Part shown: piece by piece, positions 44,119-63,982 of the stretch | Layout: every line of letters begins with the position of its first letter | How positions within the stretch are numbered: the first letter of the stretch is position 1 | Assembly: GCA_028688905.1 (NCBI GenBank) | Contig: JAQTXH010000002.1 | Coordinates: forward strand, 19,061-83,060 | Length of the DNA stretch: 64,000 nucleotides | Direction: 5' to 3' | Source: Acidiphilium sp. | Lineage (GTDB): Bacteria; Pseudomonadota; Alphaproteobacteria; Acetobacterales; Acetobacteraceae | Program-made: the position numbers and the translations under genes | Notes under the pieces: model-generated | The model's database searches: none | What the model saw: only the letters and a program-made list of their open reading frames with translations | What the model was told of the DNA's origin: nothing

Positions 44119-44132
44119 TTGATCTTGATCAA
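44119..44132. promoter_or_regulatory. FNR/FixK box
   Basis: Perfect TTGAT-cttg-ATCAA, with TAGAAT (44156-44161) at class II spacing towards the DUF302 operon. Confidence 0.75.
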
Positions 44133-44294
44133 TGCCCTGCGGCCAAACATAGAGATAGAATTAACTTTCGTTTTCGGACGATGATTTTGATGATTTTGCG
44201 GAGTCGCGAGGCGAATGGGCACCGGCAGGGGGGTAGCGTTGTTTTTGGCGACAGAGGCGTTATGGAAGCTGGTATTTCTGAGGGAGGAAGCCTG

Positions 44295-44723
44295 ATGGCG
44301 CACTATGGTTTCAGCGTTCCGGTCAGCGGCGCGTTCGGCAGCGTCGTGGAGCGGGTCATTCAAGCGCTCAAGGGGGAAGGGTTCGGCATCCTGGCGACGA
44401 TCGATGTGGCAACGACCCTCAATGCCAAGCTGGGGCAGGAAATGCCGCCCTATCTTATCCTGGGGGCTTGCAATCCCGGCCTTGCTCATCAGGCTCTCGC
44501 CGCAGACCCTGATATCGGCCTGCTGCTGCCCTGCAATGTGGTAGTGCGCCAGACCCCGAACGGTGAGGTCATCGTTGGGTTCATGGACCCCGAGGCGGTT
44601 CTCGGACTGGTTGGCAGTCAACAGATCTCGATGATCGGGCGGCAGGTTCGGACCAAATTGGAGCATGTGCGCGATGCTTTGCGAACCGTGTCGGATCATC
44701 CGGTCGCGGGCGCGGGGCCGTGA
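44295..44723 (+). CDS. DUF302-family protein
   Basis: ALKGEGFGIL..ID....L..KLG....PYLILGACNP.LA..AL...PDIGLLLPCNVVVR. The ORF-track start 43998 is an upstream extension; ATG 44295 follows GGAGG. Confidence 0.9.
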   Translation: MAHYGFSVPVSGAFGSVVERVIQALKGEGFGILATIDVATTLNAKLGQEMPPYLILGACNPGLAHQALAADPDIGLLLPCNVVVRQTPNGEVIVGFMDPEAVLGLVGSQQISMIGRQVRTKLEHVRDALRTVSDHPVAGAGP

Positions 44724-44962
44724 TGTGGTCCGGTGGTTGGTGGGGGCCAAGCCCCTGGTTTGGAGGGATGAGCATGTTGATCGTTCCGCTTCTGGTTCTG
44801 GGCGTCGTTCTATGGTTGATCTTTCGCGCCGGCGACAGAATGCCCGTCGGACATTCCGGCCCGTCGAAGCCGGAAACCGCACGGGAGGTGCTGGACCGGC
44901 GCTATGCCGCGGGCGAGATCAATCGTGAAGACTATCAGCGGATGAAACAGGATCTCGCGTAG
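44720..44962 (+). CDS. Small membrane protein with SHOCT domain
   Basis: Single TM, then ETAREVLDRRYAAGEINREDYQRMKQDL. Confidence 0.88.
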   Translation: MMWSGGWWGPSPWFGGMSMLIVPLLVLGVVLWLIFRAGDRMPVGHSGPSKPETAREVLDRRYAAGEINREDYQRMKQDLA

Positions 44963-44965
44963 TCC

Positions 44966-45598
44966 ATGCCACAGCCGCCTGACCGGATGCTGGATTTCCC
45001 GCGAAACGGCGTCGCCACGCGTGATCGCAATCACGCCCGCAGGGGTGGCATAAGGGGTCTCGCGCTTATCCTGCTTGGGTCTGCGGTTCTTGAACCGATG
45101 GCAATTGCCGCGACGATAACGAACAAGAATCCCAAGACCGGTCTCGATACCTGGAAAAACCAGAAAGGCGGATTCAGTCTGTCACTTCAGCAACTGACGC
45201 CGAATAATGTGCGGGCGATGTATGAAGCCATGGGAGCGAAGCCCGTGGTGGTGAACCGTATTGCGGCCTACTGCGTTTTTGGCACGGAAGCGCAGAACCA
45301 GTCGCACCGGCCGGTCCGTTACGATGTTTCGACTTGGCGCGCCGTTACCGCCGATGGGAAGCTCCATCATTTGCGGAGCAAGACCGGCTGGCAGAAGATT
45401 TGGAAAACCGATGGTGTCGATTACGGATTTTCGATCCTGCCCGCACAGCAGACATTCCAGCCAGGCGATTGGGGCGAAGGCTTCACCACGGTCAAACTAC
45501 CGCACGGCACGAAGTTCACCCTGGTGTATCATTGGAGTGAAGGCGGTAAAATCCGAACCGGAGCGTTGACGAATGTCCGATGCGCCGCTGATCGTTGA
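44966..45598 (+). CDS. Hypothetical exported protein with two cysteines
   Basis: Hydrophobic signal LALILLGSAVLEPMAIA; Cys only in AYCVF and VRCAA; overlaps the tlpA start. Confidence 0.7.
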   Translation: MPQPPDRMLDFPRNGVATRDRNHARRGGIRGLALILLGSAVLEPMAIAATITNKNPKTGLDTWKNQKGGFSLSLQQLTPNNVRAMYEAMGAKPVVVNRIAAYCVFGTEAQNQSHRPVRYDVSTWRAVTADGKLHHLRSKTGWQKIWKTDGVDYGFSILPAQQTFQPGDWGEGFTTVKLPHGTKFTLVYHWSEGGKIRTGALTNVRCAADR

Positions 45599-46151
45599 AC
45601 CCAGGTTTCGCGCCCGGCGGCAGGTACTGGCGATACTCGGCAGCGTAGGCGCAGGTTTGGCGATGGCGCGATCCGCGCGCGCCGGCACGAACCCTTTCGA
45701 TGCGCCGCTCACCCGGTTGACGCCGCGCCCGCCCGCGCCCGATTTCATGCTCGCCAGCGTGGCCGGACCCGTTGTTTCGCTCGCGCAGTTCCGCGGCAAA
45801 GTGGTTCTGGTCAATTTCTGGGCGACCTGGTGCCCGCCATGCCGCGCCGAGATGCCCTCGATCGAGCATCTGTATCAGGCGCTGAAGGGGAAGGGTTTCG
45901 AGGTTCTGGCACTTGATCAGGGTGAGACCCAGAGTGCCGTCTTCGCCTCTCTCGGGCAAATCAGCCCGACGCCGTCATTTCCGGTTCTTCTCGACCATGA
46001 CAGCAAAGTCGCCCACGCGTTCCACGTGGCCGGTATTCCGACCACGTTCCTGGTCGATAAGACGGGGCATATCGCCTACAAAGCGATTGGTGGGCGCGAT
46101 TATGCGACGCCGGCGATGCGCAAGATTATTCTGGATTTGGTGAACCGATAG
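45573..46151 (+). CDS. TlpA/ResA-like periplasmic thioredoxin, Tat-like signal
   Basis: RRQVL signal, APDF, VVLVNFWATWCPPCRAEMP and IPTTFLVDK.G. Confidence 0.93.
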   Translation: MSDAPLIVEPRFRARRQVLAILGSVGAGLAMARSARAGTNPFDAPLTRLTPRPPAPDFMLASVAGPVVSLAQFRGKVVLVNFWATWCPPCRAEMPSIEHLYQALKGKGFEVLALDQGETQSAVFASLGQISPTPSFPVLLDHDSKVAHAFHVAGIPTTFLVDKTGHIAYKAIGGRDYATPAMRKIILDLVNR

Positions 46152-52689: not shown

Positions 52690-53304
52690 CTACCCCTGAC
52701 CGTGTTCGATCCGGATCATGCGCTGACTCGGGATCCGCAGCCGCCGGTCCTCAAGCGGAGCACGGCGATGAAGGGCCGCCATGGTCAGGCGTTCATCGCG
52801 CGCGGTCAGCAGCGCCGCTATGGCTGGTTTGAACGCGACGAGCAGATGGTTCAGCCACCCCGCGACATCGCGTGGTTCGGCATCGTGCAACGCTGGTGAC
52901 CTGAGGTGGCGGATCATCGCGTCGGCCGGTTGCCAGACCTCGTCGGTGACCCAGCGGTTGGTGGTGAACAGGCGCAACGGCAAGCCTTTGGCATCAACGG
53001 AAACCGCGATCAGATGGGAAAATGCGGCGGCAGTATCGGGTCGGGCGGTGGCCGGGGCGGGCACGAAGATGTGGAAATGCCCATGCTCGTCGCGCAGGCG
53101 CTGCGACCGCGGATGGGCGTGATAATAGAAACGCCAGAAACTGTGCGGATCGATCGCGTCCGGCTGCGGATAATGCGCCCACTCGGCGAAGGAGGCCGCC
53201 CCTTCGAGCACGCGGGCCGGTGCGCTTTGCCCCCGCGCCGCCCAGGCGATGATCTGGTCGATCACCGCTTCGCCGGCGCGGCGCATCGGTGGTTTTCGGG
53301 TCAA
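52690..53304 (-). CDS. His-rich protein of unknown function (resembles DUF6969 as I recall it; needs an HMM check)
   Basis: FYYHAHP, EHGHFHIF, SHLIAVSVD and RLFTTNRWVT; no signal peptide. Confidence 0.75.
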   Translation of the reverse strand: MTRKPPMRRAGEAVIDQIIAWAARGQSAPARVLEGAASFAEWAHYPQPDAIDPHSFWRFYYHAHPRSQRLRDEHGHFHIFVPAPATARPDTAAAFSHLIAVSVDAKGLPLRLFTTNRWVTDEVWQPADAMIRHLRSPALHDAEPRDVAGWLNHLLVAFKPAIAALLTARDERLTMAALHRRAPLEDRRLRIPSQRMIRIEHGQG

Positions 53305-53540
53305 GGGGCGCAGGGGTTCACTGGTTTTTTCGCGGTCTTTTTCATGGTTTTGGCGGATTTTTGGGTCTGATGCTTGGCTGTCGTCGGTGCCGGGGCGCAG
53401 GGGTTTTGCGGGGTTGCGGCGTAGCTGATGCCGACGGGGTTGAGCGCCCCGACCGCGGCGGGTAGGGCAGGGGTCAACCCGATCGCGATTGCGAGCAGGG
53501 AGGCCGTGCGGCGGGCCGGTTTCAGTGTGTGAGCGGTCAT
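53301..53540 (-). CDS. 79-aa exported peptide with two NPCAP motifs and a Lys-rich linker
   Basis: Signal-like N-terminus; mature ATPQNPCAP...KSAKTMKKTAKKPVNPCAP. 13 nt after the yeeE stop and 4-nt overlap with the next gene. Confidence 0.75.
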   Translation of the reverse strand: MTAHTLKPARRTASLLAIAIGLTPALPAAVGALNPVGISYAATPQNPCAPAPTTAKHQTQKSAKTMKKTAKKPVNPCAP

Positions 53541-53553
53541 CGGAGGGGCGATC

Positions 53554-54150
53554 CTAGTGTTTGGGTTGGGCGGTGCCGGCCGGGGTGAAGGGGCTTACGG
53601 TGGTCCGGGGTGAGGCGGGTTTGGCGCGATCGACCAGCCAGCTGATCGTGACCAACACGGCCAGCAGCACTGCGAGCACCACCCAGGGGGATACGTGCAG
53701 CAGTTGCGGCACGGTGATCGAAGCCGGGCCGGTCTGGGCATAAATCCAGGATTTGATCGCCGGAAACACTGCGTTGAACGCCAGCGTGCCGCCGCCGATG
53801 CCGATCAGGAACAGCAGCCCGTCCAGCCGGCCGGACGCCATTGCGACCGCCGAGGTGCCGGGGCAATAGCCGCCGACCGCCATGCCGATGCCAACGCCGG
53901 CACCACCGAGCAGGGTGCCCCAGAAATAGACCGAGGGGACGAAAATATCGGACAGATGGATCAGGCCGAGCGCGCGCGAGGCGTAGATCAGAATGCCGCT
54001 GACCACGATGGCGGTGAACATCACCTTGAACACCGCCCAGTTGGTGAACCGCAATTGGGCGGTGAGACAGCCGGGATCGCCGAAGCCGGCACCTTCGAGA
54101 ATAACGCCGAACAGAATCCCGAGTGCCAGTCCGGTCCAGGGGATCATCAT
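53554..54150 (-). CDS. YeeE/YedE-family sulfur-compound transporter, subunit 2
   Basis: FGVILEGAGFGDP...VFKVMFTAI...GVGMAVGGYCPGTS. Confidence 0.9.
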   Translation of the reverse strand: MMIPWTGLALGILFGVILEGAGFGDPGCLTAQLRFTNWAVFKVMFTAIVVSGILIYASRALGLIHLSDIFVPSVYFWGTLLGGAGVGIGMAVGGYCPGTSAVAMASGRLDGLLFLIGIGGGTLAFNAVFPAIKSWIYAQTGPASITVPQLLHVSPWVVLAVLLAVLVTISWLVDRAKPASPRTTVSPFTPAGTAQPKH

Positions 54151-54674
54151 GAGATTGACTTTCGTTGCCAGAGGGGTTTGAAAATGGTACCGAACGCGAC
54201 GCCTGCGGCAAAAAATCCGATCAGGAACAGGAAACCGGCGGCCGCGAGCGGGGCGGAGCCTGAGAGGCCCATGCCGCTGGTGCAGCCCATCGCCATCCGC
54301 GCGCCGAAGCCCGAGGCGGCACCGCCGAGCAGAGCCAACCCGAGTCGCCCGAATGAGCGGACCCGGGGCGGACCGTCGATCTGGGGTCCGAACCGCCGGC
54401 CGAGCAGACTGCCGGCGAGCGCGCCGACGATCACGCCGATCACTTCCCAGACGATCCAGGAATTGAGGCCGGATCGGGCATAAGCGGCGAGGTAGTCATG
54501 CGCGCCGAACGCGTGGGGAGCCACGCTGGCAACACCGACCGCTGTCATCGCGGTGGTCGCGCCGGTCACACCGAGGCCGTGACCGGTGGCGAAAAACGTC
54601 GCGAACAGCACGACGCCGAGGGCGATTCCCGAAAGATAGGGATTCCATCGTGGCCTTGGGTTAACCGCTCTCAT
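54147..54674 (-). CDS. YeeE/YedE-family sulfur-compound transporter, subunit 1
   Basis: WNPYLSGIALG, GLGVTGA and GFGARMAMGCTSG. Confidence 0.9.
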   Translation of the reverse strand: MRAVNPRPRWNPYLSGIALGVVLFATFFATGHGLGVTGATTAMTAVGVASVAPHAFGAHDYLAAYARSGLNSWIVWEVIGVIVGALAGSLLGRRFGPQIDGPPRVRSFGRLGLALLGGAASGFGARMAMGCTSGMGLSGSAPLAAAGFLFLIGFFAAGVAFGTIFKPLWQRKSIS

Positions 54675-54716
54675 GATGACTCCATCGCTGGTGGGACTGG
54701 AACAAATCGTGATGGT

Positions 54717-55691
54717 TCAGAAGGCGGATTTGCCGTTGACCACCGGAAGCGACGCATCGCGCGTCCATTCCGACATCGATCCGCTGTAGAGTTTCACGTC
54801 AGGCACGTGGGCGACCTCACGCAGGGCGAACCAGTCGAGCGAGGCGAGATGGCCGGTGTTGCAGAAAGTGTAGGCCGGCTTGTCGGTCGAAATGCCGGCC
54901 TTGTGCATCGCGGCAACGACCTCGGCGCGGTCGAGCATGCCCTCGCCATCGGATGTCAGTACGACCGAATACGGCAGGTTGAGCGCGCCCGGAATGGTGC
55001 CGACCTTCCGATCGACCGCCGGCCTGACCTTGCCTTCATACTGCTTCACAGGTCGTGCATCGACCAGTTGGAAACGATGCGTGTTGAGATCGGCCTGCAC
55101 CATCGCCTGGGTCGCGAGCAGACTGGCATCGAAATGCGGGGTGAAGCTGGCGACGGCGGGTGTGACATCGCCGGTGGCGACCGGGTCTTTCGGGTTGGCG
55201 AGCCAGGCGTGGTCGCCACCGTTCATGATCGAGACATTGTTCATGCCTTCGATCCGCAGGGTCCAGTAGACCCGCGTGGTCGCCGGGAAATCGCCCTTGA
55301 TCGCGCCGGCCGGTACCAGGATGACGCGGCTGTCGTCATTAATGCCGACGCCGGCAATGACTTTGGCGATGGTGGCTTCGGGCGGCAGCACGAAGGGCAA
55401 GCCGTTCATCGGCACCCGCCAATGATCGCTCAAAAAGCCGGTGAAGACCGCGCCGGGAATATGCTCCTTCTCGTAGGCCGGCTTCTGCTTGTCGAAATCA
55501 TAGACCTCGACGACGACCAGATTGGGCGTGTGCAGATGGGCGACGAGCCAGGCTGGAGTGACCAGCGCCGGTGCGACCGGGCCTGCCGCCTGCGCGGCGA
55601 TGACACCCAGGGGTGCCAGGGCCAGAAGGGCCGCCACCGCAGTGGCGCGGCCAAGCTGGGCGCGGAGCGAGCGTACTATTGGAATATTCAT
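54717..55691 (-). CDS. Periplasmic tandem-domain sulfurtransferase (rhodanese)
   Basis: Signal peptide; LVTPAWL, HIPGAVF, MNGGDHAW, LVDARP, GTIPGA, active-site FCNTGHLAS and LYSGSMSEW. Confidence 0.92.
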   Translation of the reverse strand: MNIPIVRSLRAQLGRATAVAALLALAPLGVIAAQAAGPVAPALVTPAWLVAHLHTPNLVVVEVYDFDKQKPAYEKEHIPGAVFTGFLSDHWRVPMNGLPFVLPPEATIAKVIAGVGINDDSRVILVPAGAIKGDFPATTRVYWTLRIEGMNNVSIMNGGDHAWLANPKDPVATGDVTPAVASFTPHFDASLLATQAMVQADLNTHRFQLVDARPVKQYEGKVRPAVDRKVGTIPGALNLPYSVVLTSDGEGMLDRAEVVAAMHKAGISTDKPAYTFCNTGHLASLDWFALREVAHVPDVKLYSGSMSEWTRDASLPVVNGKSAF

Positions 55692-55818: not shown

Positions 55819-55832
55819 TTGACCCAGATCAA
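55819..55832. promoter_or_regulatory. FNR/FixK box upstream of the psr-like operon
   Basis: TTGAC-ccag-ATCAA; TAATGT at 55855-55860 gives class II (-41.5) geometry. Confidence 0.72.
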
Positions 55833-55928
55833 TGACCCTGAGAGTTAGGACCGGTAATGTAATATTGTCAGGCTGCGGCTAGAGTCCGCAGTCTGGCTCG
55901 TCGGTGTTGACCTGTGGAGGAGATCGGC

Positions 55929-58124
55929 ATGCAGCGCCGTGACTTTATCAAGCTCAGTGCCACGGTCGGCTCAAGCGCGCTGCTCGGCTCGATGCTGGGC
56001 GGATGCACCGAGCCGGCCGAATGGCAGCGCATGATGAACGCGCCACCCGCCACCGAGACCGCGACGGTCTGCAACATCTGTTTCTGGTCCTGCGCCGCCC
56101 GCGTCCACACCCAGGGGTCGCGCCTGTGGAAGATCACCGGCCAGCCGGGCGATCCGCATTCCGATGGGCGGTTGTGTACCCGCGGCACCGGTGGGGTGGG
56201 GGCTTATTACGATCCGAACCGGCTGATCAAACCGCTGCTGCGCGTTACCCGCAACGGCCAGCAGCGCTTCGAGGTGGCAAGCTGGGACGACGCGCTCGGG
56301 GTGATTGCGGAACGGTTGACCAAGGTCGCCAAAACCTACGGGCCGGATCGGCTCGCCTCGCTGGTGCATGGGCCGGGGGCGGAACATTTCGTGCATTTGA
56401 GCCGCGCCTTCGGCAGCGACAGCATCGCCGAACCCGCCTTCGCGCAATGCCGCGGGCCGCGCGACACCGGATTTTTTCTCACCTTCGGCGAGGGCATCTC
56501 CTCGCCCGAGCAGACCGACATGTCGAATGCGCGCTGCGTCGTGCTGATCGGCACGCATCTCGGCGAGAATCTGCATAACAGCCAGGTGCGGACGTTTGCC
56601 GATGCGATCCGGAACGACGCGACGATCATCACGGTCGATCCGCGCTTCTCGGTGGCGGCCGGCAAGTCGCAGCACTGGCTGCCGATCAAGCCCGGCACCG
56701 ACATCGCCCTGCTGCTCGCCTGGATCAACGTGATCCTGGCCGAAAAACTGTATGATGCCGATTATGTCGCGCGCAACACGATCGGGCTGCCGGAACTCGC
56801 CGCCTATGTCGCGCCGTTCACGCCGGAATGGGCCTATCCCGCGACCGGGCTGGAACCCGAGGCGATCCGGCGGACCGCGCGGTTGATGGCGGCGGCGGCA
56901 CCGGCCACGGTCATTCATCCCGGCCGGCACACCGTGTGGTGGGGCGATGATACCCAGCGCGCCCGCGCGATGGCGATTCTGGCCGGGCTGCTCGGCATCT
57001 GGGGCAGCAAGGGCGGCTATTACCTGCCGGAAGCGGCGCTGATCCCGGATTACCCGCTGCCGGAATATCCGGTGCCGAAATCCTCCTGGCGCGACATCAC
57101 CCTGGCGAAATATCCGCTCGCCGGCGCGCCGGTCACCAATGTGATCATCGACAACGCGCTGGGCAAAAACGCGCATTACCGCGCCCTGCTGATCTATGAC
57201 ACCAACCTGCCGATGACGATGCCCGGCATTCGCGAGAAATTGCAGACCGCATCGCAATCGCTCGATCTGATCGTCGCGATCGATGTGCAGCCCTCCGAAG
57301 TGACCGGCTATGCCGATGTCGTGCTGCCGGAGTGTTCGTATCTGGAGCGTTATGACGGCTTGCGCAACGATCCCGAAATCGAACCCTGCATCGCGCTGCG
57401 CTCGCCCGCCTTGCCGCCACGCGGGGAGTCGAAGCCGGGCTGGTGGATTGCCAAGGAGATCGGCAACCGGCTTGGGGTGGCCGATTATTTCCCCTGGAAG
57501 GATTACGCCGAGGTGGTCGATTGGCAACTCAGGCAGGTCGGCAGTTCGCTCGAGGAGCTGAAAAGCACCGGGATCAGGTTTTTTCCGCGCACGACGCCGC
57601 TCTATTATAAAAAAGGCGAGACCATTCCGTTCAAGACCCCGAGCGGCAAGATCGAGCTGTATTCGACGACCCTGAAGGACGCCGGGTTCGATCCGATCCC
57701 GCGCTTCACCCCGCCGCAGGAGGCGAGGCCAGGGTTTTTCCGCCTCAATTACGGTCGCGCGCCGCAGCATAGTTTCAGCCGCACCCAGAACAATCCGGTG
57801 TTGTTTCAGTTGATGCCGGAAAACCTGGTGTGGATTCATCCGACCGTCGCGCGGCAATTCGGCATCGAGACTGCGAGCTATATCCAACTGGTCAATCAGG
57901 ACGGGGTGGTGAGCAATCGGGTGCGGGTGCGGGTGACCGAGCGGACCCGGCCGGATTCGGTGTGGCTGGTGCATGGGTTCGGCCATACCGCCGAAGGGTT
58001 GAAACTCGCGTTCGGCCGGGGGGCCGATGATTCCGCGCTGATGACGAATATTCTCTACGACCCGATCATGGGAGGCACCGGCATGCGCGGCAATTACGTG
58101 ACCTTTCGCAAGGCGGCGGCGTGA
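55929..58124 (+). CDS. psrA: Tat-exported molybdopterin oxidoreductase, polysulfide/thiosulfate reductase (PsrA/PhsA)-like catalytic subunit
   Basis: QRRDFIK signal, CNICFWSC...LCTRG cluster, AQCRGPR Mo-Cys motif, TVDPRFS, PSGKIELYS and HSFSRTQNN. Confidence 0.85.
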   Translation: MQRRDFIKLSATVGSSALLGSMLGGCTEPAEWQRMMNAPPATETATVCNICFWSCAARVHTQGSRLWKITGQPGDPHSDGRLCTRGTGGVGAYYDPNRLIKPLLRVTRNGQQRFEVASWDDALGVIAERLTKVAKTYGPDRLASLVHGPGAEHFVHLSRAFGSDSIAEPAFAQCRGPRDTGFFLTFGEGISSPEQTDMSNARCVVLIGTHLGENLHNSQVRTFADAIRNDATIITVDPRFSVAAGKSQHWLPIKPGTDIALLLAWINVILAEKLYDADYVARNTIGLPELAAYVAPFTPEWAYPATGLEPEAIRRTARLMAAAAPATVIHPGRHTVWWGDDTQRARAMAILAGLLGIWGSKGGYYLPEAALIPDYPLPEYPVPKSSWRDITLAKYPLAGAPVTNVIIDNALGKNAHYRALLIYDTNLPMTMPGIREKLQTASQSLDLIVAIDVQPSEVTGYADVVLPECSYLERYDGLRNDPEIEPCIALRSPALPPRGESKPGWWIAKEIGNRLGVADYFPWKDYAEVVDWQLRQVGSSLEELKSTGIRFFPRTTPLYYKKGETIPFKTPSGKIELYSTTLKDAGFDPIPRFTPPQEARPGFFRLNYGRAPQHSFSRTQNNPVLFQLMPENLVWIHPTVARQFGIETASYIQLVNQDGVVSNRVRVRVTERTRPDSVWLVHGFGHTAEGLKLAFGRGADDSALMTNILYDPIMGGTGMRGNYVTFRKAAA

Positions 58125-58666
58125 TGACCCATTATGCGATGGTGATCGACACCAGAACCTGCATCGGCTGTACTGACTGCGTCGATGCCTGCCGGATGGA
58201 GAACAACGTCCCCGAAGGTCTATGCTATGATTGGGTGGTCGAGATCACCAAGGGGCGCTATCCGAATTTGACCACCGAGTTTCGCTCTGAGCGCTGCAAT
58301 CATTGCTCCAACGCCACCTGTGTCACCGCCTGCCCGACCGGGGCGAGCCAGTATTGGAACGGCAGCAACATCGTCGTGGTCGATGCGACCAAATGCACCG
58401 GCTGCAAGGCCTGCATCGCCGCCTGCCCGTATGACGCAAGGCTGATCATGCAGCCGCAGGGCTACATCGGCAAATGCACCTTCTGTGTGCAACGGGTGCA
58501 ATATGGCGAGGACCCCGCCTGCGTCGCGGTATGCCCGGCGCATGCGATGCATTTCGGACTGCTCGATGATCCGACCAGCAACGTCAGCCGATTGCTGGCG
58601 GAGCGCGAGAATTACACCCTGCATCCGGAAACCGGCAACGAGCCGAACGTATTCTATTTGCGCTGA
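58121..58666 (+). CDS. psrB: Four-cluster [4Fe-4S] electron-transfer subunit (PsrB/NrfC-like)
   Basis: CIGCTDCVDAC, CNHCSNATCVTACP, CTGCKACIAACP and KCTFC...PACVAVCP. Confidence 0.92.
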   Translation: MMTHYAMVIDTRTCIGCTDCVDACRMENNVPEGLCYDWVVEITKGRYPNLTTEFRSERCNHCSNATCVTACPTGASQYWNGSNIVVVDATKCTGCKACIAACPYDARLIMQPQGYIGKCTFCVQRVQYGEDPACVAVCPAHAMHFGLLDDPTSNVSRLLAERENYTLHPETGNEPNVFYLR

Positions 58667-58690
58667 CCATGAAAAACGAGGTGCCGTGAC

Positions 58691-59731
58691 ATGCGCGAGG
58701 AGGTTCTGGCCAGTGTTCTGGCCAATCCAGGTGTCGAGCCGACGCTCGCGATCTGGGGCTGGCAGATTGCGACCTATCTGTTTCTCGGTGGTCTCGCCGC
58801 CGGGTTGATGGTGTTTTCCGGCTGGACGGTGCTGAGTGGGCGCGCGGCGCGCACACCCTTCGCCGCCAATCGCGCCCCGCTGATCGGGCTGGTGCTGCTC
58901 GGAGTAGGCATGGGAACGTTGTTTCTCGATCTGGAGCGCAAGATCAACGTCTGGCGGTTCTACGCGTTCCTGCACGAGACCTCGCCGATGTCATGGGGGG
59001 CGTGGATTCTGATTTTGGTGTTCCCGGTGCTCGCCCTGCTGGCTCTGGCCGGGCTGCCGGCGGGGTTCCCCTGGTTGGCCGGGAAACTGGGTCGTCTGCC
59101 GATCATCGGTCCGCGTGCCGTCACGCCGCTGATCGGGCTGTGCGGCAGGGTGCGGCGACCGCTGGCGTTTCTGGGGATCGCGCTCGGCATCGGGCTCGGC
59201 ATCTATACCGGGGTGCTGCTGTCGAGCTTCAATGCGCGGCCGTTCTGGCATTCGGCGCTGCTCGGTCCGCTGTTTCTGGTCTCCGGCCTGTCGACCGGCG
59301 CGGCGCTGATGATCCTGGGCGCCGGCACGAAGGAGGAGCGGCATCTGTTCGGCCGGATCGACCTCGGCCTGATCGTGGCCGAACTCGCGCTGATCTTTCT
59401 GTTCGTGATCGACATGCTGAACGGTGACGCGTTGCAGCGGAGCGCGGTGGCGCATGTGCTCGGCGGGTCCGAGACGCAATTGTTCTGGATCGGGTTCATC
59501 GGCCTCGGCCTCGCGATACCACTGGTGCTGGAGGCCGCGATGTGGTGGCGCTCGATGACGCCGATCGCAGGTGCTGCGTCGGTCCTGGTGCTGCTCGGTG
59601 GCTTTCTGCTGCGCGACGTCATGGTAACCACCGGCCAGCAGACCACCTGGACCAGCTTCAACAATCAGTTCAACCCCGGATTGCTCGCCAGACTGCGCAC
59701 CGATGGCGAAAATCCGAACGGACGTTTTTAG
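58691..59731 (+). CDS. psrC: NrfD/PsrC-family membrane anchor
   Basis: WGWQIATYLFLGGLAAG, LFLDLE, SPMSWGAW, YTGVLLS...RPFWH..LLGPLFLVSGLSTG and GGFLLR. Confidence 0.92.
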   Translation: MREEVLASVLANPGVEPTLAIWGWQIATYLFLGGLAAGLMVFSGWTVLSGRAARTPFAANRAPLIGLVLLGVGMGTLFLDLERKINVWRFYAFLHETSPMSWGAWILILVFPVLALLALAGLPAGFPWLAGKLGRLPIIGPRAVTPLIGLCGRVRRPLAFLGIALGIGLGIYTGVLLSSFNARPFWHSALLGPLFLVSGLSTGAALMILGAGTKEERHLFGRIDLGLIVAELALIFLFVIDMLNGDALQRSAVAHVLGGSETQLFWIGFIGLGLAIPLVLEAAMWWRSMTPIAGAASVLVLLGGFLLRDVMVTTGQQTTWTSFNNQFNPGLLARLRTDGENPNGRF

Positions 59732-59741
59732 GAGACGACCG

Positions 59742-60410
59742 ATGCAACGCACAAAGCTCTCCCGCACCCGGATCTCCGGCCTCGCGCTGGCTCTCGGTGC
59801 GATTCCCGCCCTGCCGATGGCGATCCCGGCGCTCTCGCCGCTCGGCGTCGCCCGCGCCGATGCCCAAGACGCGGCGACGCTGCAAACCATGGCCCAGGCG
59901 GTCGCGCGCGGGGAGACCCTGGTGACACCACACCATCTGCAAGGGCTGATCCTGGCGAAACGGCGCGATTTCACCCTGATCGACCTGCGCGCCCCGGGCG
60001 ATTTCGCCGCCGCCCATATCCAGGGTGCCACCAACATGCCGCTCCCCAAACTGCTCGAATCGGCGGAAATCGTGAAACTGCGCCGGATGCCGCAGGTCAT
60101 CGTGTACTCCACCACGACCGACGAAGCGGCCCAGGGCGTGGTGCTGCTGCGCCTGTCCGGCGTGGCGGCGATGGCGCTGGAGGGCGGGCTGCTCGCCTGG
60201 TCGCACATGGTCACGGCGGCATCGACACCGCAGACCGCCGCGATCGTGCGCGCCCTGAACGATTGCCCGCAACCGGCACCGGCGGTCATCCCCGCGCTCG
60301 GCAGCATCGTGCCGGCAAGCGCCACCACACCCGCCGTGTCGCCGGTGCCAGCGCCGCCCACCAAGCCGAAACCAAAAACCCCCATTAATCTGAACGCCAT
60401 GTGCGGTTAG
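59742..60410 (+). CDS. Exported rhodanese-fold protein lacking the catalytic Cys, with Pro-rich arm and C-terminal MCG
   Basis: LIDLRAPGDFAAAHIQGA, VIVYSTTT (Ser at the usual Cys position) and LEGGLLAW; start 59742 after AGGAG. Confidence 0.82.
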   Translation: MQRTKLSRTRISGLALALGAIPALPMAIPALSPLGVARADAQDAATLQTMAQAVARGETLVTPHHLQGLILAKRRDFTLIDLRAPGDFAAAHIQGATNMPLPKLLESAEIVKLRRMPQVIVYSTTTDEAAQGVVLLRLSGVAAMALEGGLLAWSHMVTAASTPQTAAIVRALNDCPQPAPAVIPALGSIVPASATTPAVSPVPAPPTKPKPKTPINLNAMCG

Positions 60411-60856
60411 ATTTCTGGCGGCAACACCGGCAGGTGGTGTGCGGCGCGTTGGGCAAAGGCTTCGATGGTGCGGTTAAGCATGATCGGCGCGATTCTTTCG
60501 GCAATCCGCTCGAATACCGCCGTGCGGAAACTAAGGTCGAAATCCGCGCGCACGGCGGTGCTGGTCGGGCACAGGCTGCGCAATTGCCAGACCAGGCGGA
60601 ATTTGCGGAACGGCGATTGAGAGGAACTGATTTGCAGCCGATGTGGCGGGTCGAGTTCCGCGACCGAGCGGAATTGCAGGGATAATCCGGCGAGGCTGAC
60701 GACCTGTTCAACCTCGAGATGCTGCGGCGCGCGCTGATCGATCCGCGCGGCCTGCCAGCCCGGCATGTAGAGCGGGTAGGATTCGATGTCCGCGATCAGG
60801 GCGAATAATGGGGCGATCGGATAGGCGAAGACGCGCTCGACGTGATGCGTCGTCAT
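60407..60856 (-). CDS. Coq10/RatA-like START (SRPBCC) domain protein
   Basis: LFALIADIESYPLYMPGW, SQSPFRKFRLVW and MLNRTIEAFAQRA. Confidence 0.85.
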   Translation of the reverse strand: MTTHHVERVFAYPIAPLFALIADIESYPLYMPGWQAARIDQRAPQHLEVEQVVSLAGLSLQFRSVAELDPPHRLQISSSQSPFRKFRLVWQLRSLCPTSTAVRADFDLSFRTAVFERIAERIAPIMLNRTIEAFAQRAAHHLPVLPPEI

Positions 60857-60945
60857 GCCGGCGCGTGGGCGGCGTGCGGGAGATCCGAGCGTGACAATCG
60901 AACAACCACGATGGTGGCATCAATCCAAAAAATACCGCACTGCCC

Positions 60946-60959
60946 TTGATCCATATCAA
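60946..60959. promoter_or_regulatory. FNR/FixK box upstream of the hydrogenase genes
   Basis: Perfect TTGAT-ccat-ATCAA; TATAAT at 61012-61017 would place it near -71.5 (class I). Confidence 0.75.
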
Positions 60960-61067
60960 TGCAATAGGCGGCATATTTGTTATGGGAACAAGGCGTTTGG
61001 ACGATCGTCACTATAATTTGTCGCGATAATCCTTTGCCCGTCGAGGGCAACAGACGGGGGAACGATA

Positions 61068-62189
61068 ATGGGCGCGGAGAGCCAGACTTTTTACCAGTTG
61101 ATGCGCGCTCAGGGTACTAGTCGGCGTTCGTTTCTCAAATTTTGCAGCCTGACCGCCGCCGCCCTCGGGCTGGAGCCGGTCTATGCCGCGCAGATCGCCC
61201 ACGCCATGGAAACCAAGCCGCGGATTCCGGTGCTCTGGATGCATGGGCTGGAATGCACGTGCTGTTCGGAATCCTTCATCCGTTCGGGGCATCCGCTGGC
61301 CAAGGATGTCATCCTGAAAATGATCTCGCTCGATTACGACGACACGCTGATGGCCGCCGCCGGGTACCAGGCCGAGGCGATTCTCGACGAAATCCCGAAA
61401 AAATACCCGGGCGAATATATTCTCGCGGTCGAGGGCAATCCGCCGCTCAACGAGGATGGCATGTATTGCATCGTCGGCGGCAGGCCGTTCGTCGACAAGC
61501 TCAAGGCGGTGGCGGCGAATGCCAAGGCGGTGATCGCCTGGGGTGCCTGCGCCTCCTGGGGCTGCGTGCAGGCGGCGCGGCCCAACCCGACGCAAGCGAC
61601 GCCGATCGACAAGGTGATCACCGACAAGCCGATCATCAAGGTGCCGGGCTGCCCGCCGATCGCCGAGGTGATGACCGGGGTGATCAGCTACATGATCACC
61701 TTCGGGCGCATCCCCGATCTGGACAGTCGCGGCCGGCCCCTGATGTTCTACGGCCAGCGGATTCACGACAAATGCTATCGCAGGCCGCATTTCGACGCCG
61801 GCGAGTTCGTCGAGACCTGGGACGATCAGGGGGCGCGCGAGGGCTACTGCCTCTATAAAATGGGTTGTCGGGGGCCGACCACCTATAACGCGTGCTCGAC
61901 GGTGCGCTGGAACGGCGGGGTGTCGTTTCCAATCCAGGCCGGCCACGGCTGCATCGGCTGCTCGGAAGACAATTTCTGGGACAATGGCCCGTTCTACCAG
62001 CCGCTGTCGCATGTCGGTGCCGGGTTCGGGGTCGAGGCGAGTGCCGACGAAATCGGCGCGGCGGCGGCGGGCGTGGTCGGTGCCGGCGTGCTCGCCCATG
62101 CCGGGGCCAGCGCGATCAAGCATTGGCAGAAAATCAAGCCGAAACCGAAGTCTGACGACCATCCGCCGCATGAGGGAGACCGGCCATGA
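61068..62189 (+). CDS. hupS: Membrane-bound [NiFe]-hydrogenase small subunit, O2-tolerant group 1d
   Basis: Tat SRRSFLK; ECTCCSES and GACASWGC (supernumerary Cys19/Cys120 positions); [12 protein letters not shown]; C-terminal TM. Confidence 0.96.
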
Positions 62190-63982
62190 CGACCGTCACC
62201 ACGCCGAACGGCTTCAGCCTCAATAACAGCGGACGGCGCATGGTGGTCGATCCGATCACGCGGATCGAGGGGCATCTGCGCTGCGAGGTCAATCTCGACC
62301 AGAATAACGTCATCCGCAACGCGGTGTCGTCGGGCACCATGTGGCGCGGCCTCGAGGTGATTTTGAAGGGCCGCGATCCGCGTGATGCCTGGGCTTTTTG
62401 CGAACGCATCTGCGGTGTGTGTACCGGCATCCACGCGCTGGCCTCGGTGCGGGCGGTGGAGGATGCGCTCGCCATCACGATTCCGGAAAACGCCAACACC
62501 ATTCGCAACATCATGCTGGCGACGCAATGGGCGCAGGATCATCTGGTGCATTTCTATCATCTGCACGCGCTCGACTGGGTCGATGTGATCAGCGCGCTGA
62601 AGGCCGATCCGAAAGCGACCAGCACGCTCGCGCAGAGCATCTCGCCGTGGCCGAATTCCTCGCCGGGCTATTTTCGCGATGTGCAGACGAGGCTGAAAAA
62701 ATTCGTCGATTCGGGTCAATTGGGTCCGTTCATGAACGGCTACTGGGGTAATCCGGCGTATCTGCTGCCACCGGAAGCCAATCTGATGGCGGTGACGCAT
62801 TATCTCGAGGCGCTCGATTTTCAGCGCGAAATCGTGAAAATCCACACCGTGTTCGGCGGCAAGAACCCGCATCCGAACTGGCTGGTCGGCGGCATGGCCT
62901 GCGCGATCAATCTCGACGGCCCGCTCGCCGCCGGCGCGCCGGTGAACATGGTGCAGCTCAATCTGGTATCCTCGATCATCGACCGCACGATCGACTTCAT
63001 CGATCAGGTCTATGTTCCCGATCTGATCGCCATTGCGACCTATTACAAACACTGGGATTACGGCGGCGGCCTCGCCGGGCGGAATCTGATGTCCTATGGC
63101 GATTACCCGGTCGCCGCCAACAACTGGTCGGACGCCAATCTGCTGATCCCGCGCGGGGCGATCATCAACGGCAAGCTCGACGAGATCATGGAGATCGACC
63201 TGCGCGACCCCAGCCAGGTGCAGGAGTTCGTCGATCATTCCTGGTATCGCTACCCCGACGAGGCGATCGGGCTGCACCCCTGGGCCGGCATCACCGATCC
63301 CAATTTCGAGCTCGGCCCCCACACGGTCGGCACCAAAACCGACATCAAGCAACTCGATGAAGGTGCCAAATATTCCTTCATCAAAGCCCCCCGCTGGCGC
63401 GGCCACGCGATGGAGGTCGGCCCGCTGTCGCGCTTCACTTTAGGCTACGCCAAGGGGATTGCGGAGTTCAAGGAGCCGGTCGACAAGGTGCTGACCGATC
63501 TCGGCCTGCCGCTCGGTGCCTTGTTCACCACGCTCGGCCGCACCGCCGCGCGCGGGCTGGAAGCCTCCTGGGCCGCGCACAAGATGCGCTTCTTCCACGA
63601 CCGGCTGATGGAAAACCTGCGCGCGGGCGATCTGGTCACCGCGAACACCGAAAAATGGGAACCGGCGACCTGGCCGGCCGAGGCCCGCGGCATCGGGCAT
63701 GTCGAGGCACCGCGCGGCGCGCTCGGCCATTGGGTGCATATCAAGGATCGCAAGATCGAAGCCTATCAGGCCGTGGTGCCGACCACCTGGAACGGCTCCC
63801 CGCGTGATCCGGCCGGCAATATCGGCGCGTTCGAGGCGGCACTGCTGAACACCCCGCTCGCGGACTCCAGCCAGCCGCTGGAAATTTTGCGCACGCTACA
63901 CAGTTTCGATCCCTGCCTCGCCTGTGCCACCCATGTGATCGCGCCCGATGGCAGCGAACTGGTGCGCGCCGACGTGCTTTAG
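62186..63982 (+). CDS. hupL: [NiFe]-hydrogenase large subunit
   Basis: [39 protein letters not shown] and a cleavable C-terminal extension. Confidence 0.98.

Follow-up and report, generated by a model that had tools for sequence, protein, structure and literature searches.

A psr-hydrogenase island behind FNR-type boxes in Acidiphilium, a candidate H2-to-sulfur respiratory chain

Can a bacterium whose genome points to ubiquinone as its only respiratory quinone drive the reduction of sulfur with H2? This question is raised by a 64,000-nucleotide stretch of an Acidiphilium sp. assembly (here called the window; contig JAQTXH010000002.1 of GCA_028688905.1), in which genes for a PsrABC-like molybdoenzyme lie beside those for a [NiFe] uptake hydrogenase, HupSL. 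The original prediction, made from the letters of the window alone, took positions 55819-63982 for a clustered respiratory chain from H2 to sulfur compounds, with both operons behind boxes for the oxygen sensor FNR. The PsrABC-like complex, a sulfur carrier, a Coq10-like gene and the uptake hydrogenase were all located in this segment, whose first position, 55819, is that of an FNR box, psrA itself beginning at 55929. Sulfur carriers, announced in the plural, are present, but just one such gene (59742-60410) falls within the segment, the others lying upstream at 52690-55691. The island is a variation on the hydrogenase-quinone-Psr theme, horizontally acquired or mobile and predicted to be controlled by O2 limitation, and we see about an even chance that it serves the H2-driven reduction of carrier-bound sulfane sulfur.

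The molybdoenzyme and the hydrogenase

The psrA product starts with a twin-arginine translocation (Tat) motif, MQRRDFIK, and matches the Pfam families Molybdop_Fe4S4 (PF04879), Molybdopterin (PF00384) and Molydop_binding (PF01568). Its FS0 motif is intact (C48-x2-C51-x3-C55-x27-C83), and Cys174 aligns with the Mo-ligand Cys of Thermus PsrA. Family placement was based on scores against hidden Markov models and Protein Data Bank (PDB) chains. The best NCBIfam match was PhsA with 434 bits, the next family reaching 207, while ArrA scored 109, YnfE (selenate) 133 and TtrA 55 bits; among PDB chains, Thermus PsrA (2vpw) was matched over the full length with 648 bits, followed by a match of 172 bits, with ArrA at 115. 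By these scores PsrA is assigned to the Psr/Phs group, apart from arsenate, selenate and tetrathionate reductases, and the Tat signal makes a cytoplasmic enzyme of the Soe type less likely. A grouping with arsenate or selenate reductases or with sulfite oxidase, named beforehand among the outcomes that would refute the predicted chain, was thus not found. As 434 bits fall short of the equivalog cut-off for PhsA (NCBIfam NF012032, 694 bits), the protein was not filed as PhsA. Behind the twin arginines follows a lipobox-like L-x-G-C (LGGC; within 55929-56010), which is kept in six of the seven homologues read and whose Cys is missing from Thermus PsrA; this suggests that PsrA is a Tat-exported lipoprotein.

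PsrB, with 17 Cys, is of the four-cluster ferredoxin type and matches Fer4_11. PsrC (346 residues, eight predicted transmembrane helices) belongs to the NrfD family (151 bits), but in a comparison with PDB chains, Thermus PsrC included, no sequence match at E<=0.001 was obtained. Given that PsrA lies near Thermus PsrA, the NrfD subtype therefore differs from that of the solved Psr structure. The three genes abut or overlap and form one operon.

HupS carries the Tat motif SRRSFLKF, with a match to TIGR01409, and its motifs ECTCCSES and GACASWGC provide the two extra Cys of a 6-Cys proximal [4Fe-3S] cluster. In HupL both an RxCGxCxxxH-type Ni-binding motif and DPCLACATH are present, together with a C-terminal extension for cleavage. 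A cytochrome b subunit (TIGR02125, 223 bits) accompanies them, as do hupD, hyaE-like, HupH_C and rubredoxin genes. The top PDB matches (4c3o, 3uqy, 3rgw and 3ayx) are Salmonella Hyd-5, E. coli Hyd-1 and the membrane-bound hydrogenases of Ralstonia and Hydrogenovibrio. On all membership features tested, the enzyme is classified as an O2-tolerant group 1d hydrogenase.

Linkage and FNR boxes in related loci

The four-gene cassette of psrABC and a pseudo-rhodanese gene was kept in every related locus (L numbers) long enough to show it. In five lineages the cassette lies at most 10 kb from a hydrogenase, in three gene orders and with two hydrogenase types. These lineages are the present genome, an Acetobacteraceae metagenome-assembled genome (MAG; L003), an Acidocella MAG (L005), Thiomonas sp. 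FB-Cd (L012/L018) and a locus labelled Rhodoblastus (L021), so named after an identical DUF6969 protein that carries the label Rhodoblastus sp. The gene order of the window recurs in the betaproteobacterium Thiomonas sp. FB-Cd, with HupS and HupL 91 and 86% and PsrA 80% identical, and in the Acidocella MAG hup is inverted and stands upstream of psr. Across 301 sampled Acetobacteraceae genomes PsrA was detected in three and group 1 HupL in eight; both genomes with an intact psrA were also HupL-positive. Since the pairing of psr with hydrogenase recurs in other acid-habitat bacteria, both probably work together.

The Rhodoblastus-labelled locus extends this picture, for the acidophile loci carry a group 1d hydrogenase and L021 one of another lineage. 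This enzyme lacks the extra Cys (GTCAAFGG). Its HupL is 51% identical to that of the window and has as best PDB match 3myr, the Allochromatium vinosum hydrogenase, which belongs to the broad group that also includes Aquifex hydrogenase II. Here psrA-B-C-rhd-hupS-hupL-cytb run co-directionally with a 91-bp gap and a single FNR box. Beyond divergent genes for a rhodanese, YeeE, a peptide and DUF6969 follow menF, menD (403 > 244 bits), menB (478 > 380), menC, menE and menA (147 > 102), i.e. a complete menaquinone pathway with most members above curated cut-offs. An H2/Psr operon beside a menaquinone pathway is a Wolinella/Aquifex-like arrangement.

The FNR boxes ahead of both operons, as originally predicted, proved to be real: TTGACCCAGATCAA at 55819 and the perfect TTGATCCATATCAA at 60946 belong to a class of sites enriched over chance, with 18 perfect TTGAT-N4-ATCAA sites in the genome (0.6 expected from base composition) and 31 relaxed ones (4 expected), almost all of them intergenic. 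From the centre of TTGACCCAGATCAA to the psrA ATG the distance is 103 bp, and if a TAATGT hexamer is taken as the -10 element, the box comes to lie at about -41.5; a scan for sigma-70 promoters and terminators returned four promoter-like sites against 2.5 expected. In the clade of at least 64% identity, 11 of 11 loci show a box of this type ahead of psrA, the spacer sequences not being the same, and all three loci with a separate hup promoter region (L003, L005 and L012) have one 111-143 bp ahead of hupS. In the Acidocella locus L005 the Coq10-like gene has an FNR box of its own, and in L004 one lies between the Coq10-like gene and that for a B12-binding radical S-adenosylmethionine (radical-SAM) enzyme. 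The genome encodes two Crp/Fnr regulators of the FnrL/FnrN type with the N-terminal Cys-cluster motifs CAKCEARHIGLCDSLC and CDTCAARHIGLC, both encoded close to an FNR box of their own; further boxes precede genes for cytochrome bd subunit I, a haem-copper oxidase subunit (338 bp), a metallo-beta-lactamase resembling persulfide dioxygenase, and a thiolase. Control of psr and hup by O2 limitation through an FNR-type regulator is predicted on these grounds. Conserved but rearranged synteny, the two hydrogenase types and the conserved boxes make a functional linkage of psr and hydrogenase probable.

Two other FNR-box units were noted. Within the window, a perfect box TTGATCTTGATCAA in 44119-46151 precedes genes for a DUF302 protein, a small SHOCT-domain membrane protein, an exported 210-residue protein without a family and a thioredoxin/AhpC-like protein. 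About 85-110 kb downstream of the island, a cluster of boxes (G000:C11:166125-188339) comprises an FnrL/FnrN-type regulator with its own box, cytochrome bd subunit I, the 298-residue metallo-beta-lactamase resembling persulfide dioxygenase, and the thiolase.

Direction of electron flow

From this gene content we infer a quinone electron path, a reductive direction, a role for persulfide carriers and an energy yield, as follows. At falling O2 an FNR-type oxygen sensor would switch the island on. Periplasmic HupSL would then oxidise H2 and pass electrons through the cytochrome b HupC into the membrane quinone pool, a step that the co-regulated Coq10-like protein may help. The haem-free, NrfD-type PsrC would hand quinol electrons to PsrB and on to Tat-exported PsrA, which would form H2S from sulfane sulfur. 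As neither polysulfide nor thiosulfate is stable in free form at acid pH, the substrate of PsrA is probably supplied as protein-bound persulfide; the tandem rhodanese, the Cys-tailed pseudo-rhodanese and a peptide with NPCAP motifs are the probable deliverers. With Sud in Wolinella and SbdP in Aquifex, rhodanese-type suppliers of sulfur to Psr and Sre are established. A sulfur product or substrate on the cytoplasmic side might be handled by DUF6969 and the two YeeE halves.

Reductase homology, low-oxygen control, a donor-acceptor linkage that withstands rearrangement and the menaquinone pathway of L021 all speak for the reductive direction. Considerable evidence weighs on the other side, beginning with the host. 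Its assembly (3.4 Mb, 62% G+C, 99.99% complete, without a 16S rRNA gene; the closest PsrA, 94% identical, is in a MAG of the same genus labelled Acidiphilium sp. KM4311-10) encodes UbiG (251 bits > 103 cut-off), and menaquinone synthesis by either known route was absent from it, with no MqnA/D, no MenC and MenD at 62 against 244 bits. Nor was an RquA-like protein, indicative of rhodoquinone, found among the UbiG paralogues in a partial test made without an RquA reference, the sole close paralogue being a PmtA-like phospholipid methyltransferase. SoxB, above its cut-off, and the RuBisCO large subunit are encoded as well, so that the sulfur enzyme could equally work oxidatively; overall the host looks like a ubiquinone-only, facultatively lithoautotrophic oxidiser of sulfur and hydrogen. 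Ubiquinone has a potential of about +100 mV, S0/polysulfide of about -270 mV and thiosulfate of about -400 mV. With ubiquinone as sole carrier, the reduction of S0, polysulfide or thiosulfate would therefore be steeply uphill and need energy input, whereas electron transfer from sulfide to ubiquinone is downhill. To our knowledge every characterised Psr/Phs chain uses menaquinone, and the low-potential quinone that goes with Psr/Phs/Sre-type enzymes (menaquinone, methylmenaquinone or demethylmenaquinone) was not found for this genome.

Further adverse points come from the hydrogenase, its regulation and the relatives of PsrA. Group 1d is the type of aerobic H2 oxidisers and normally feeds O2 respiration, not being sulfur-linked. 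The DNA of hupSL shares about 75% identity with hup of Rhizobium and Paracoccus, its nearest plasmid-borne relatives in PLSDB. A plasmid origin of the island was considered and dropped, as only hupSL matches PLSDB records and psr matches none. As FNR boxes also stand ahead of cytochrome bd, they mark low O2 and not necessarily anoxia. The sequencing runs holding the stretch were two landfill-metagenome DNA runs and zero RNA runs. The other hosts of the wider PsrA clade mostly resemble sulfur oxidisers, and neither a hydrogenase nor an FNR box near psrA was present in the gammaproteobacterial loci of 58-60% identity. Where the hydrogenase would be, L016 (14449-16047) and L017 (6723-8387) have a protein of 530-550 residues with faint matches to multihaem cytochromes c. 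A search of the literature yielded no report in which Acidiphilium or Acidocella reduces sulfur, and Phs, Psr and Sre are described as indistinguishable by sequence, with psr-like genes of sulfur oxidisers possibly running in reverse (PMC8359478).

Of the predicted H2-driven sulfur reduction, a Psr/Phs enzyme and its link to a hydrogenase thus stood up, and the group 1d hydrogenase, the lack of menaquinone, SoxB and RuBisCO, and boxes that signal low O2 count against the process itself. Because ubiquinol would need energy input and sulfide-to-ubiquinone transfer is downhill, we give the reductive reading no better than even prospects and leave room for the readings below. The original statement that direction and substrate cannot be fixed from sequence is one with which we agree.

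In a second reading both enzymes are parallel electron donors, and the hydrogenase (with H2) and a reverse-running, Psr-like sulfide/persulfide-to-quinone oxidoreductase would both reduce ubiquinone under micro-oxic conditions. Electrons would then leave by cytochrome bd, another oxidase or Fe(III), rhodaneses and Cys-tail carriers would pass sulfane on, and YeeE would import thiosulfate. A ubiquinone-only genome with SoxB and RuBisCO, an O2-tolerant hydrogenase, FNR boxes shared with cytochrome bd subunit I and the persulfide-dioxygenase-like gene, the frequency of the wider PsrA clade in sulfur-oxidiser-like Gammaproteobacteria and the reverse action considered in the review just cited would all fit. 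We nevertheless regard this arrangement as rather unlikely, as no enzyme of the Psr/Phs clade is known to act as a physiological sulfide oxidase, and it is easier to see why a donor-acceptor pair, rather than two independent donors, should stay tightly linked through rearrangements. Moreover, O2-labile radical-SAM genes lie within the same FNR-controlled island, and the joining of the cassette in L021 to a non-O2-tolerant hydrogenase and a menaquinone pathway is a better fit for a reductase. By suggesting a low-potential acceptor, this menaquinone pathway also speaks against a further possibility, an acid-stable acceptor of higher potential. In such an H2-to-tetrathionate respiration, tetrathionate or polythionate would be reduced to thiosulfate with ubiquinol, and rhodanese and YeeE would clear the acid-labile thiosulfate. 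Since the potential of the tetrathionate/thiosulfate couple is positive, the ubiquinone problem would not arise, and at low pH tetrathionate counts among the major intermediates. This reading also gives a task to the thiosulfate-handling genes that are core neighbours (tandem rhodanese and YeeE halves) and is compatible with the score of PsrA below the PhsA equivalog cut-off, which leaves the substrate unfixed. PsrA is, however, outside the TtrA family (55 bits against a cut-off of 1750), and three cysteine-carrier proteins point to sulfane sulfur and not to a soluble oxyanion; we judge tetrathionate improbable.

That psr and hup share no pathway at all, and merely hitch-hike as separate modules on one mobile, FNR-controlled region, is very unlikely in our estimation. 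Their linkage has outlasted three rearrangements and a swap of the hydrogenase lineage, in L021 both form the one co-directional string under a single box, and DUF6969 alternates between psr-side and hup operons. Mere hitch-hiking would nonetheless agree with the patchy distribution and horizontal acquisition of both modules, with the occurrence of hydrogenase without psr in six of the eight HupL-positive Acetobacteraceae genomes and of psr without a nearby hydrogenase in L002, L014 and the gammaproteobacterial loci, and with the nature of the window region, an accessory island with several unrelated FNR-box units.

The reductive chain itself might be reconciled with a ubiquinone-type host if the island made and delivered its own prenylated, quinone-like carrier of low potential, hitherto undescribed, which would enable H2-to-sulfur respiration in a ubiquinone organism; we consider this a long shot. 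Three genes near the cassette of ubiquinone-type hosts are absent from L021, namely the Coq10-like gene, one for a MenA-like UbiA prenyltransferase and one for a B12/radical-SAM protein (TIGR04190). The prenyltransferase scores under the MenA cut-offs (100 against 264 and 66 against 102 bits); in Thiomonas and L003 it forms a fusion with a PNPOx-like domain. The TIGR04190 protein is about 70% identical in L002, L004, L005 and L012, and among the 301 Acetobacteraceae genomes it occurs in two, the very two with intact psrA. Here, both genes lie 9-13 kb past the window end, in an operon headed by a fourth perfect FNR box, TTGATCTTGATCAA (L011 12651-19554 = G000:C11:91650-98553). This operon also holds a PqqD-like chaperone, three SPASM-type radical-SAM enzymes and a 105-residue open reading frame, with TIGR04190 at 620 bits (> 500); its gene set matches no known pathway.

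Accessory genes, known systems and layout

Several conserved accessory genes accompany the two enzymes, namely those for the pseudo-rhodanese, the NPCAP peptide, DUF6969, the Coq10-like protein and the TIGR04190 enzyme, and their roles are putative. The pseudo-rhodanese is the fourth cassette gene in 13 of 13 examined loci with sequence reaching that far. Its catalytic Cys position reads VIVYSTTT, and its C-terminus, ...NLNAMCG on a Pro/Lys-rich tail, has a Cys conserved across related loci. The tandem rhodanese resembles 3-mercaptopyruvate sulfurtransferase (NCBIfam, 125 bits, under its cut-off) and adjoins psrA in L001, L003-5, L007, L009, L010, L014 and L021. No Pfam or NCBIfam family matched the 79-residue NPCAP peptide, which has homologues in L001 and L010 and, with 88 residues, in L021 (9708-9974). 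The number of NPC motifs varies by species, from two NPCAP here to at least four NPC(A/S)P in L021, a pattern expected of a repeat-based cysteine carrier. The Coq10-like gene sits between psr and hup in L003, L004, L005 and L012; an identity as RatA toxin was rejected (47 bits against a cut-off of 258).

DUF6969 accompanies the psr cassette with 55-68% identity in L002, L003, L005, L009, L010 and L021. Its context shifts from the end of the rhodanese/YeeE operon here to the inside of the hup operon, after rubredoxin, in Thiomonas sp. FB-Cd (L018 11463-12110). The latter position had prompted a comparison with the HupJ/HybE chaperone, which was rejected as there was no sequence similarity to HupJ of R. 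leguminosarum. An AlphaFold model from a six-sequence alignment (predicted local distance difference test, pLDDT, 69; predicted template modelling score, pTM, 0.71) gave no Foldseek match in the PDB at E<=0.001.

Among known systems, the HydABC-methylmenaquinone-PsrABC chain of Wolinella succinogenes with Sud shares with the island a periplasmic, Tat-exported [NiFe] hydrogenase with a cytochrome b anchor, a three-subunit Psr of the Mo/FeS/NrfD type and a periplasmic sulfur supplier of rhodanese fold. The island differs in its O2-tolerant group 1d enzyme, the absence of menaquinone genes, and the clustering and FNR control of its genes. Where Sud has a catalytic Cys, the carrier here is a rhodanese without one, bearing a C-terminal Cys tail instead, and the island additionally has the tandem rhodanese, split YeeE, DUF6969, Coq10-like and TIGR04190 genes. 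PsrABC of Thermus thermophilus (2vpw) includes the closest solved relative of PsrA, with FS0 motif and Mo-ligand Cys in common; menaquinone is used there, while here PsrC is unmatched and a lipobox-like Cys is present. The hydrogenase II-sulfur reductase supercomplex of Aquifex aeolicus and Hyd/Sre of Acidianus ambivalens likewise combine a membrane hydrogenase with a sulfur reductase of the DMSO-reductase family, with the rhodanese SbdP supplying sulfur, but the hydrogenase of the window is of the type that Aquifex couples to O2 and not to sulfur. Salmonella PhsABC, the best NCBIfam match of PsrA yet one under the equivalog cut-off, depends on menaquinol and the proton-motive force, and menaquinone genes are absent here. 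With the group 1d enzymes of Rhizobium, Ralstonia and E. coli (Hyd-1 type) the hydrogenase shares the 6-Cys cluster, cytochrome b, HyaE-like, HupH-like and rubredoxin proteins and hyp genes. It differs in being embedded in a sulfur-enzyme island with a Coq10-like gene, and HupE, HupJ (HybE-like) and HupK are missing from the stretch examined.

The original prediction had further placed the chain in an apparently aerobic lineage and knew of no demonstration in Acetobacteraceae. The former is too strong, Acidiphilium being a micro-aerobic or facultative Fe(III) reducer (PMC8790237). The latter stands insofar as our search found sulfur reduction reported for neither Acidiphilium nor Acidocella, but PsrABC and a Ni/Fe hydrogenase have already been listed, separately, as horizontally acquired in one Acidiphilium clade by Li et al. 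2020 (PMC7677001). Type 1 hydrogenases are patchy in Acetobacteraceae (PMC10715153). We found no report of psr-hup clustering, conserved FNR control or the accessory genes, and nothing direct on the use of H2 by Acidiphilium or Acidocella.

If the H2-driven reduction of sulfane sulfur holds, some strains of Acidiphilium, Acidocella and Thiomonas would make H2S from H2 and sulfur once O2 is exhausted. The carriers of the island are easily cultured and common in acid mine and landfill habitats. They would add to the classical sulfate and sulfur reducers a further source of sulfide at low pH, with consequences for the precipitation of metals and for the indirect reduction of Fe(III) in acid waters. 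The bioenergetic puzzle is that of a ubiquinone-only host driving a Psr-type enzyme that is menaquinone-dependent elsewhere, with reverse operation, a different substrate or a dedicated carrier as possible answers.

Table 1. Features of the psr-hydrogenase island in window coordinates.
Feature	Position	Strand	Characteristics
DUF6969 protein	52690..53304	-	Cytoplasmic; PF22308, 195 bits; invariant His-rich motifs WAHYPQPD and EHGHFH
Exported 79-residue Lys-rich peptide	53301..53540	-	Two NPCAP motifs, one C-terminal
Half-size YeeE/YedE-type sulfur transporter, N-terminal profile half	53554..54150	-	PF04143 Sulf_transp, 64 bits, positions 4-157/310
Half-size YeeE/YedE-type sulfur transporter, C-terminal profile half	54147..54674	-	PF04143, 66 bits, positions 175-308/310
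Exported tandem rhodanese, active-site loop CNTGH	54717..55691	-	First gene of the operon divergent from psrA; PF00581 in two stretches
FNR/FixK-type box TTGACCCAGATCAA	55819..55832	.	Divergent intergenic region between rhodanese and psrA
psrA, Tat-exported Mo-bisPGD (molybdenum-bis(pyranopterin guanine dinucleotide)) catalytic subunit, probably lipid-anchored, Psr/Phs-type	55929..58124	+	Family matches and cofactor motifs
psrB, four-cluster iron-sulfur subunit	58121..58666	+	Pfam/NCBIfam matches, Cys count
psrC, NrfD-type haem-free quinone-interacting anchor, eight transmembrane helices	58691..59731	+	NrfD, 151 bits
Exported pseudo-rhodanese	59742..60410	+	Catalytic Cys replaced; ALNxCP Cys; C-terminal Cys on Pro/Lys-rich tail
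Coq10-like START/SRPBCC protein, putatively quinone-binding	60407..60856	-	Divergent from hupS; PF03364, 76 bits
Perfect FNR box TTGATCCATATCAA	60946..60959	.	Between Coq10-like gene and hupS
hupS, Tat-exported small subunit, O2-tolerant group 1d [NiFe] hydrogenase	61068..62189	+	TIGR00391, 547 bits, and Tat signal model
hupL, large subunit	62186..63982	+	PF00374, 738 bits

Upstream of psrA and divergent from it, the second sulfur operon (52690-55691) comprises the tandem rhodanese, the YeeE halves, the 79-residue peptide and DUF6969 (Table 1). Just past the window end follow hupC (cytochrome b), hupD, a hyaE-like gene, hupH, rubredoxin, hypA and hypB, with hypF and hypD on the opposite strand. 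In Acidiphilium acidophilum, the only companions of DUF6969 (L020 10001-10684) between the flanking transposases are a rhodanese and a full-length YeeE.

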